64,000 bases of DNA from Octopus sinensis (taxonomy: Eukaryota): contig NC_043014.1 of the NCBI RefSeq assembly GCF_006345805.1, positions 9,982,001 through 10,046,000 of the forward strand, read 5' to 3'. The notes beneath the pieces are model-generated. The model made no database searches, was not told the origin of the DNA, and was given only the letters and a program-made list of their open reading frames with translations. Position 1 is the first letter of the stretch, and every line of letters starts with the position of its first letter. The translations under genes were made by a program, and so were the position numbers. Positions 13,721-14,482 of the stretch are shown in pieces.

Positions 13721-13722
<2 letters not shown>

Positions 13723-14482
13723 TAAGTAATTAAGGGTTTAGCAACGATTTGCCTCACCACGCACCGAATTTAGAAATAGCAGTCAAAGAGTTATAGCTAT
13801 TCTTTCTACTAAAAGGGAGATCTCAGTAAAACCACAGCACTTGAAAGGCAAACACAGACAGGCAAGAGAGAAAGAAATGACGACAATCGATCATACAATA
13901 TTAAGTCACCTACGGACGTACGTTTCGAAATTAAGTTTTAGGAAAGCATAAGAATTAGATAATTATGTCTTACCCAACTTTTTTTCTCATCAGCGTAGGA
14001 CACTACAATTATGAATAATTGTATATTAAATTTCGAGGTACTAGAAGACATCATCTCAACTCAGTATCAGAGCGAGCTAAAGCCGTTACCAGTATCACCA
14101 AATTCAAAGTGTGAATGAAAGTTTGTGTCACCAACCCCCTCCCACCAGCGTGCAGCCAAGACAAGATGTTGTGGTCATTTACTGGGATGAAATATGGTTA
14201 TCAGTAATAATATAGGGTGAAATTAATTAATTTGGAATAATCATTAATTTCACCAAGTAGATTTCGGCATGTAAAAGCCCCATTCGAGGAAAGTTTAAGT
14301 AATACTAAGTAATTAAGGGTTTAGCAACGATTTGCCTCACCACACACCGAATTTAGAAATAGCAGTCAAAGAGTTATAGCTATTCTTTCTACTAAAAGGG
14401 AGATCTCAGTAAAACCACAGCACTTAAAAGGCAAACGCAGGCGAAAGAGAAAGAAATGACGACAATCGATCATACAATATTA
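13721..14482 (-). mobile_element. Retrozyme/Penelope-pLTR-like element: about 1.3 copies of a 583-bp unit within (TA)n
   Basis: Direct repeats 13721-13903 and 14304-14482, highly similar. Internal hammerhead. (TA)n on both flanks. Confidence 0.75.
13909..13999 (-). ncRNA. Type I hammerhead ribozyme, canonical core, GUC cleavage site
   Basis: Minus strand: CCTACG CTGATGA GAAA..(long stem II)..TTTC GAAA CGTACG TC CGTAGG. Confidence 0.85.

Follow-up and report, generated by a model that had tools for sequence, protein, structure and literature searches.

A 583-nt non-coding hammerhead repeat with Penelope-like insertion ends in Octopus sinensis

Introduction

The published layout of Penelope-like element (PLE) insertions, as given in the available text of PMC8557442, comprises a truncated copy ahead of a full unit, a truncated copy in inverted orientation at the 5' end, an optional tail, and (TA)n targets. 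The inverted repeat has been reported to overlap the direct repeat by 15 bp (PMC3846280). The best-described (TA)n targeters, the Naiads, are said to be without canonical hammerheads in the accessible sections of PMC8557442, PMC3846280 and PMC8969392. For a PLE of Anolis, two internal start sites of reverse transcription were found downstream of the ribozyme, and the tail corresponds to the sequence that separates them (PMC11167929).

Metazoan non-LTR retrozymes have been argued to descend from the pseudo-LTRs of PLEs (bioRxiv 10.64898/2026.07.22.740005). The activity of metazoan type I hammerheads was described to depend on the formation of dimers (PMC4209133), and only one of nine Xenopus retrozyme dimers underwent cleavage in vitro (bioRxiv 10.64898/2026.07.22.740005). 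A model in which a circular RNA serves as the template has been proposed (PMC4209133; PMC7229834). In the available text of three publications, both the role of the hammerhead in PLEs and the movement of retrozymes via circles are stated to be open (PMC8557442; PMC11167929; PMC7229834). Among the papers listed in literature searches, none was found to describe a cephalopod retrozyme, while the supplements of papers may list such families; the giant squid genome paper, in its accessible part, counts 235 hammerhead motifs and says nothing further about them.

Here, we describe an element in a 64-kb stretch of DNA (the window, which denotes the whole stretch that was analyzed). The window is animal DNA and rich in repeats. 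The element is real; its class has already been published, and the 583-nt family to which it belongs is new.

Results

The element lies between two TA-rich tracts and consists of the following parts, given with their window coordinates and strands.

13687..13721, no strand: left (TA)n target tract (TRF, 17.5 copies), which has 3 nt in common with the end of the element
13720..13903, minus strand: 3'-terminal repeat R2, which ends at 13719-13722; this end, some 195 nt downstream of the cut, represents the fixed terminus A
13915..14301, minus strand: single-copy part of the unit with ribozyme, spacer and tail, from the comparison of the repeats
14302..14482, minus strand: 5'-truncated, pseudo-LTR-like upstream repeat R1, which stops 11-17 nt before the cut-site equivalent
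14477..14482, no strand: 6-nt microhomology of direct repeat and inverted piece, from the junction sequence
14477..14493, plus strand: inverted short arm, a copy of 14197-14213, with 11 nt unique to the arm (shuffle test; BLAST)
14494..14564, no strand: right (TA)18 tract (TA part 14494-14529), followed by (AG)18 (TRF)

The two direct repeats, 14302-14482 (181 nt) and 13719-13903 (185 nt), are 95.1% identical (BLAST, E 3e-83); five transitions and a single 4-nt indel separate them. Because of this indel, the period is 583 nt to its left and 579 nt to its right. The region 13720-14482 spans 763 nt, or 1.31 units of 583 nt, and TRF detected tracts on both sides, in agreement with the first-pass annotation, which had described about 1.3 copies of a 583-nt unit between two TA tracts. 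The annotation had also noted the lack of an ORF, and indeed the longest stop-free stretches in all six frames of the circularized unit comprise 48 aa in the frames of the ribozyme strand and 69 aa in those of the other strand. The unit is thus non-coding, with a GC content of 0.365 (36.5%), and no further copy of it was detected with BLAST in the 64-kb window.

In contrast, the 5' end of the element had been placed at 14482, and this end had to be revised: the element runs from 13720 to 14493, and its last part is an inverted piece of itself. Positions 14477-14493 are an exact inverted copy of 14197-14213 (17 nt; two matches, a number that none of 100 shuffles reached). With BLAST, the inverted piece extends to 22 nt (95%, E 1.4e-5), and the chance that its 11-mer occurs anywhere in the unit is about 3e-4. 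The 11 nt that follow the direct repeat and precede the right TA tract therefore belong to the element and not to the flank. The last 6 nt of the direct repeat are also the first 6 nt of the inverted piece (14477-14482), so that the long arm in fact ends at a distance of 11-17 nt from the equivalent of the cut site. Taken as a whole, the element consists of a minus-strand long arm and a plus-strand arm of 11-17 nt, joined head to head, and both 3' ends face TA sequence. The inverted piece, which the earlier annotation had missed, is the most diagnostic feature of the element.

As far as the published descriptions are accessible (PMC8557442; PMC3846280; PMC8969392), this arrangement equals that of PLE insertions, among them the non-autonomous elements of Chlamys: a pseudo-LTR tandem, a 5' inverted truncated copy with an overlap at the junction, a putative tail on one side, and a microsatellite target that masks any target-site duplication. 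The element differs from these insertions in having no ORF and an inverted arm of just 11-17 nt, and its putative tail would comprise about 106 nt, compared with 30-40 nt in the PLE text available. A GIY-YIG or PLE-like ORF was not found in the window with Pfam, for which 116 (9 + 107) of the 187 stop-free frames of at least 75 aa were used; low-complexity frames and some frames overlapping a Helitron were left out of this set.

A hammerhead motif was identified on the minus strand of the unit, with the following parts.

13909..13999, minus strand: type I hammerhead motif (sequence; constrained and dimer folds; shuffle control)
13999-13994 with 13914-13909, minus strand: stem I (6 bp); core at 13993-13987 and 13926-13923 (sequence, folds)
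13986-13927, minus strand: stem II, 60 nt; palindromic stem III at 13923-13916 (sequence, folds)
13914..13915, minus strand: predicted cleavage site after GUC (sequence)

The core words CUGAUGA and GAAA are intact, and the GUC has its C17 at 13915. The hammerhead descriptor matched once in the 64-kb window and not at all in 40 of 40 dinucleotide shuffles. A canonical hammerhead had been proposed at this site, and its 6-bp stem I, the GUC and the predicted cut between 13915 and 13914 stand, as does the distance of 11 nt (13914-13904) from the cut to the start of the repeat. The term canonical does not fully apply, as stem II forms an imperfect hairpin of 60 nt and Rfam detected no hammerhead. 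In the 64-kb window, Rfam yielded no match at the gathering score, and relaxation to E values of up to 10 produced 18 chance matches without a hammerhead among them; the Rfam miss may be due to stem II being a 60-nt hairpin instead of 4 bp. With canonical metazoan type I hammerheads, as characterized in the available text of PMC4209133, the motif shares a helix I of 6 bp and a helix III of 1-2 bp with a palindromic loop, whereas the canonical helix II has 4 bp, so the unit carries a long-stem-II variant.

Folding predictions were made for one and for two copies of the motif. In the monomer, the active structure lies 3.2 kcal/mol above the preferred misfold. In contrast, the predicted active dimer is at the energy minimum when two copies are folded together (-44.2 versus 2 x -18.0 kcal/mol); its stem III is intermolecular and has 8 bp, and its cores are open.

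The unit was also compared with metazoan non-LTR retrozymes. Like them, it is non-coding and multi-copy, has a GC content below 50% and a predicted self-paired fold, and contains a type I hammerhead with a short palindromic stem III that is predicted to need a dimer (PMC7229834, available text). Its 583 nt fall within the 51-972 bp given for retrozymes in the accessible part of bioRxiv 10.64898/2026.07.22.740005 and exceed the 150-450 bp given in that of PMC7229834, and its stem II has 60 nt, compared with 4 bp in the metazoan retrozymes described there. The element has an inverted arm, a putative tail and a TA target, features that are not described for retrozymes in the available text of either source. 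Circles are known for published retrozymes and are hypothetical for the unit. Two ribozymes are taken to characterize an active retrozyme (bioRxiv 10.64898/2026.07.22.740005, available text); the copy at 13720-14493, having one ribozyme in 1.31 units, is a monomer-type derivative and not an active retrozyme, and because of its single ribozyme it cannot release a unit-length monomer or circle.

The sequencing runs matching the stretch (20 of 24 listed) came from 10 studies and five organism codes, and none is on record as RNA. In four runs, the contigs were aligned to one permuted unit, 13830-14412. The unit is not single-copy: 1847, 2191, 1204 and 483 contigs matched in the four runs, mostly with 90-100% identity. 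The 583-nt unit is a multi-copy family.

The 3' half of the ribozyme is invariant across this family. In family contigs of the DNA runs X1 and X3, no variant reached 2% between 13905 and 13927, with six variable places in X1 contigs at 13883-13904 on one side and ten at 13928-13968, on the stem II side, on the other. One subfamily has an apparently changed core position 4, as judged from loose ends behind 13977 among those listed. Runs X6 and X14, which were guessed to be RNA and may be DNA, have coverage in each of the 26 bins into which the ribozyme region was divided, and the cut site is crossed by some of their contigs; as such contigs are unable to show RNA ends or circles, both runs were excluded as evidence. 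An exact match to a 21-nt ribozyme motif was not found in metagenome and viral contigs.

The head-to-tail joint from 14412 to 13833 was present in four of four runs, in contigs too short to separate partial tandems from multimers. In all four, joint-bearing contigs contained 6-11 other letters, so the joint is not private to this locus. At the 3' side, among the loose ends listed (24 of 312), at least 19 X1 contigs continue into TA-rich sequence where they depart from the unit at 14302, at the place equivalent to the left end of the 13720-14493 copy, and the summed contig depth steps up 1.6- to 2.7-fold there in four of four runs. The family thus has a fixed, TA-joined 3' end, terminus A.

A second depth change defines a likely terminus B near 14197. 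Across 14190-14209, the summed depth falls 10-fold in X1, 37-fold in X7 and 19-fold in X8, whereas the fall in X2 is just 2.5-fold, and a taper model of the fall near 14196 places the end at 14193-14198, where the inverted arm ends. Terminus B is not established by this fall because summed contig depth is no copy number, as the tool itself flags. Between the two termini, the tail would be composed as follows.

14197..14301, minus strand: putative tail of about 106 nt from terminus A (14303) to terminus B (about 14197), from the end of the inverted piece and the fall of contig depth
14216..14254, minus strand: 16-bp hairpin within the tail, from predicted folds

The modeled hairpin may, speculatively, be a candidate protein-binding site.

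The coincidence of the outer end of the inverted piece with the depth step at 14193-14198 in three of four runs also bears on how the inverted arm arose. The long arm could have been made by a PLE-type process and the 17-nt inverted piece by a one-off snap-back, with no second fixed start site; the 3' end of the cDNA would have annealed to its own 14208-14213 and have been extended by 11 nt before repair. The piece is indeed very short and starts with a 6-nt microhomology, self-priming has been proposed for PLE inversions in the available text of PMC3846280, no TA-joined loose end at 14197 is among the 24 of 312 listed, and the lack of a clear depth step at 14196 in X2 speaks against two start sites. 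A unique event does not account for the shared position of the step, and we regard the snap-back as improbable.

Loose ends behind 14351 (at least 14 X1 and at least 7 X7 contigs among those listed) suggest sister families that share just the 3' module with the unit. Such sisters, together with the observation that PLE insertions mostly consist of short 3' ends (PMC9977147, available text), would fit an explanation without any mobile non-coding family, in which the locus holds either the truncated end of an autonomous PLE or a solo repeat that was partially duplicated at the DNA level. This explanation is very improbable, as the sequence of the unit returns to its own start after 583 nt and has no ORF in the 13720-14493 copy, and as the joint recurs outside the locus. 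A sister family that diverges upstream of 14351 may lead to the partner PLE. In addition, X1 contigs contain an opposite-strand joint, 14185/14386, which represents a further inverted copy within the family.

Next, the position at which the long arm stops was considered. The first-pass annotation had stated that the repeat boundary maps almost to the ribozyme cut site and had taken this as the geometry to be expected if a circular RNA is reverse transcribed more than once around, or of a tandem pseudo-LTR. The proximity was confirmed, to within 11-17 nt. However, closed circles lack an end at this position: for a circular template, copies exceeding one unit are predicted, without a stop at the cut, while a linear 5'-cleavage product predicts a stop near it. 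For a single boundary, post hoc arithmetic gives a chance of 17/583, or about 3% (two-sided 6%), of lying no more than 17 nt downstream of the cut. Unless the stop is due to chance, a linear RNA with a cleavage-made 5' end is indicated.

The differences between the repeats provide a second line of evidence. The 4-nt gap of R1 with its linked G occurs at a joint from 14412 to 13859 in X1, X7 and X8, and loose ends lie before 13859. The change 13866 G>A, with A being the R1 state, accounts for 5-39% of the depth in four of four runs, and the R2 state is likewise present in other family contigs. Since both states occur in other contigs, R1 and R2 probably derive from two different template units. 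Recurrence or gene conversion is possible, as the gap lies within a slippage-prone short repeat and three of the five substitutions are at CpG. R1 and R2 also share three alleles, at 13883, 13889 and 13900, that are in the minority in X1 (the other letter makes up 73-91% of the depth), so they belong to one sublineage, and one circle would give the same result. Family polymorphisms also bear on the dating of the insertion. The repeats are highly alike, as had been noted, at 95.1%, but the suggestion of a young insertion is not supported by this: several R1/R2 differences are polymorphisms of the family, repeat identity therefore has no dating value, and an insertion age based on it was rejected.

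A template in the form of a closed 583-nt circle that was read 1.3 times, within the same class and with the same PLE-type insertion, is possible, though we rate it as rather unlikely. The repeat differences would then have arisen later, and the stop near the cut would be chance or stalling of the reverse transcriptase at structure. Several observations favor such a circle. The predicted fold of the circular monomer has -143.6 kcal/mol (z -3.3 versus 30 shuffles; opposite strand -116.7), the linear unit is predicted to fold with z -5.5, and the monomeric ribozyme is predicted to be inactive, so that a circle would stay closed. The three minority alleles common to R1 and R2 fit one circle, and retrozymes of coral, mussel and axolotl yield circles (PMC7229834, available text). 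Among the loose ends listed in four of four runs (21 of 34; 24 of 312), none lies at 13903-13915, which is in line with a circle and counts against a linear template, for which 5' ends of other copies should cluster at the cut. This test is insensitive because the junction of the 13720-14493 copy itself is also absent from the loose ends listed. A circle offers no reason why the long arm should end at a distance of 11-17 nt from the cut (chance about 3-6%), and the linked R1/R2 differences recur in other contigs. The inference of reverse transcription around a circle is thus weaker than had been claimed. By a narrow preference, the template is taken to have been a linear, once-cut RNA.

Discussion

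The characteristics of the element, that is a multi-copy family, a head-to-tail joint in four of four runs, a conserved ribozyme half and PLE-type ends, support the original reading as a retrozyme-like unit or tandem pseudo-LTR. We are highly confident of the class assignment and of PLE-type mobilization. A viroid-like infectious RNA was considered and rejected, as the sequence is chromosomal and multi-copy in DNA and its ends are joined to TA. We lean, with modest confidence, toward the full interpretation that the locus holds a 1.3-unit copy plus short inverted arm of a non-coding hammerhead repeat, which is a non-autonomous PLE of the animal retrozyme kind and was copied from a linear, once-cut template.

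The following pathway would generate such a copy. A tandem source locus would be transcribed on the ribozyme strand, and adjacent ribozymes would pair via the palindromic stem III, cutting some sites but not all. Partial cutting would yield a linear RNA of more than one unit with its 5' end at a cut site. A PLE endonuclease/reverse transcriptase acting in trans would open a (TA)n tract, and both broken ends would prime cDNA synthesis at two internal start sites, about 195 and about 301 nt downstream of the cut. The long cDNA, of 763 nt, would cross one uncut ribozyme and nearly reach the 5' end of the RNA, while the second cDNA would end after 11-17 nt. Both cDNAs would then be joined head to head at the 6-nt microhomology.

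The Poseidon element PAc of Anolis is comparable in several respects (PMC11167929, available text): it has two internal start sites of reverse transcription past the cut in the same order, AT-rich targets, and a ribozyme that is inactive alone, as is predicted for the element. In PAc, one start site is roughly 85-90 nt beyond the cut and the other somewhat more distant, both within the ORF, whereas those of the element would be 195 and 301 nt past the cut and in non-coding sequence. In vitro, uncleaved RNA was used by PAc, in contrast to the 13720-14493 copy, the 5' end of which is close to a cut site. Moreover, according to the same text, ribozyme mutants of the Anolis PLE had no effect on insertion in vitro and no RNA reads of this PLE ended at the cut site. 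Both results argue against a linear cleaved template. The low success of Xenopus retrozyme dimers in vitro, with cleavage in one of nine, and the length of the putative tail likewise count against the full interpretation.

As a general model, linear multimers with a hammerhead-made 5' end could be the templates of Penelope-mobilized retrozymes, primed from both DNA ends at two fixed internal sites, with circles as by-products. We propose this tentatively and consider it more doubtful than not. If linear hammerhead-cut templates are indeed used, the ribozyme would determine the template's 5' end in vivo, and circles would not be the transposition intermediate. A single copy cannot decide between a linear RNA and a circle; the special value of this copy is that it adds a single observation in favor of a template that was linear and cleaved. 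Copies of more than unit length with a single ribozyme allow two genomic tests, namely the positions of their 5' ends relative to the cut and the identity of their two repeats. If other copies of the family resemble the 13720-14493 copy, a linear cleaved template is favored.

Additional features of the window

Directly left of the element, at 12669-13505 (plus strand), are two adjoining open frames of 134 and 144 aa. They had neither a Pfam match nor a reliable Atlas match, and 13074-13505 gave low-recognition Atlas matches alone; our guess is that they are possibly a decayed retroelement ORF1.

The window contains a second, unrelated hammerhead-like repeat, with 106-nt copies at 23826-23931 (plus strand) and 29056-29161 (minus strand) that are 92% alike. 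The repeat has the core words CUGAAGA and GAAAC, a 5-bp stem I and a near-palindromic stem III, and it ends at TA-rich runs. A BLAST comparison with the 583-nt unit gave no match. In fold models, the plain type I structure lies 7-11 kcal/mol above the minimum, and a permuted wiring is possible. A 53-nt inverted piece of the 3' end of this repeat was found at 23305-23357.

Several other mobile elements were also detected. At 31027-35773 (minus strand) lies a near-intact Helitron with three overlapping frames, in which Pfam identified STPR repeats, a Helitron N-terminal/Rep domain and a PIF1 helicase; it includes a 147-bp coding tandem repeat at 35293-35690. Decayed mobile-element fragments are present at 42107-43323 (minus strand), with an RVT_1 match at 43018-43323 (E 9e-6), and related LINE-like 3' sequences occur at 2566-3012 (minus strand) and 42177-42569. 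A zf-RVT fragment was found at 16726-17064 (plus strand) and a Mos1-type HTH fragment at 63223-63468 (minus strand). Finally, 43499-47497 is a 4-kb degenerate (TA)n-rich tract with a strongly skewed composition.
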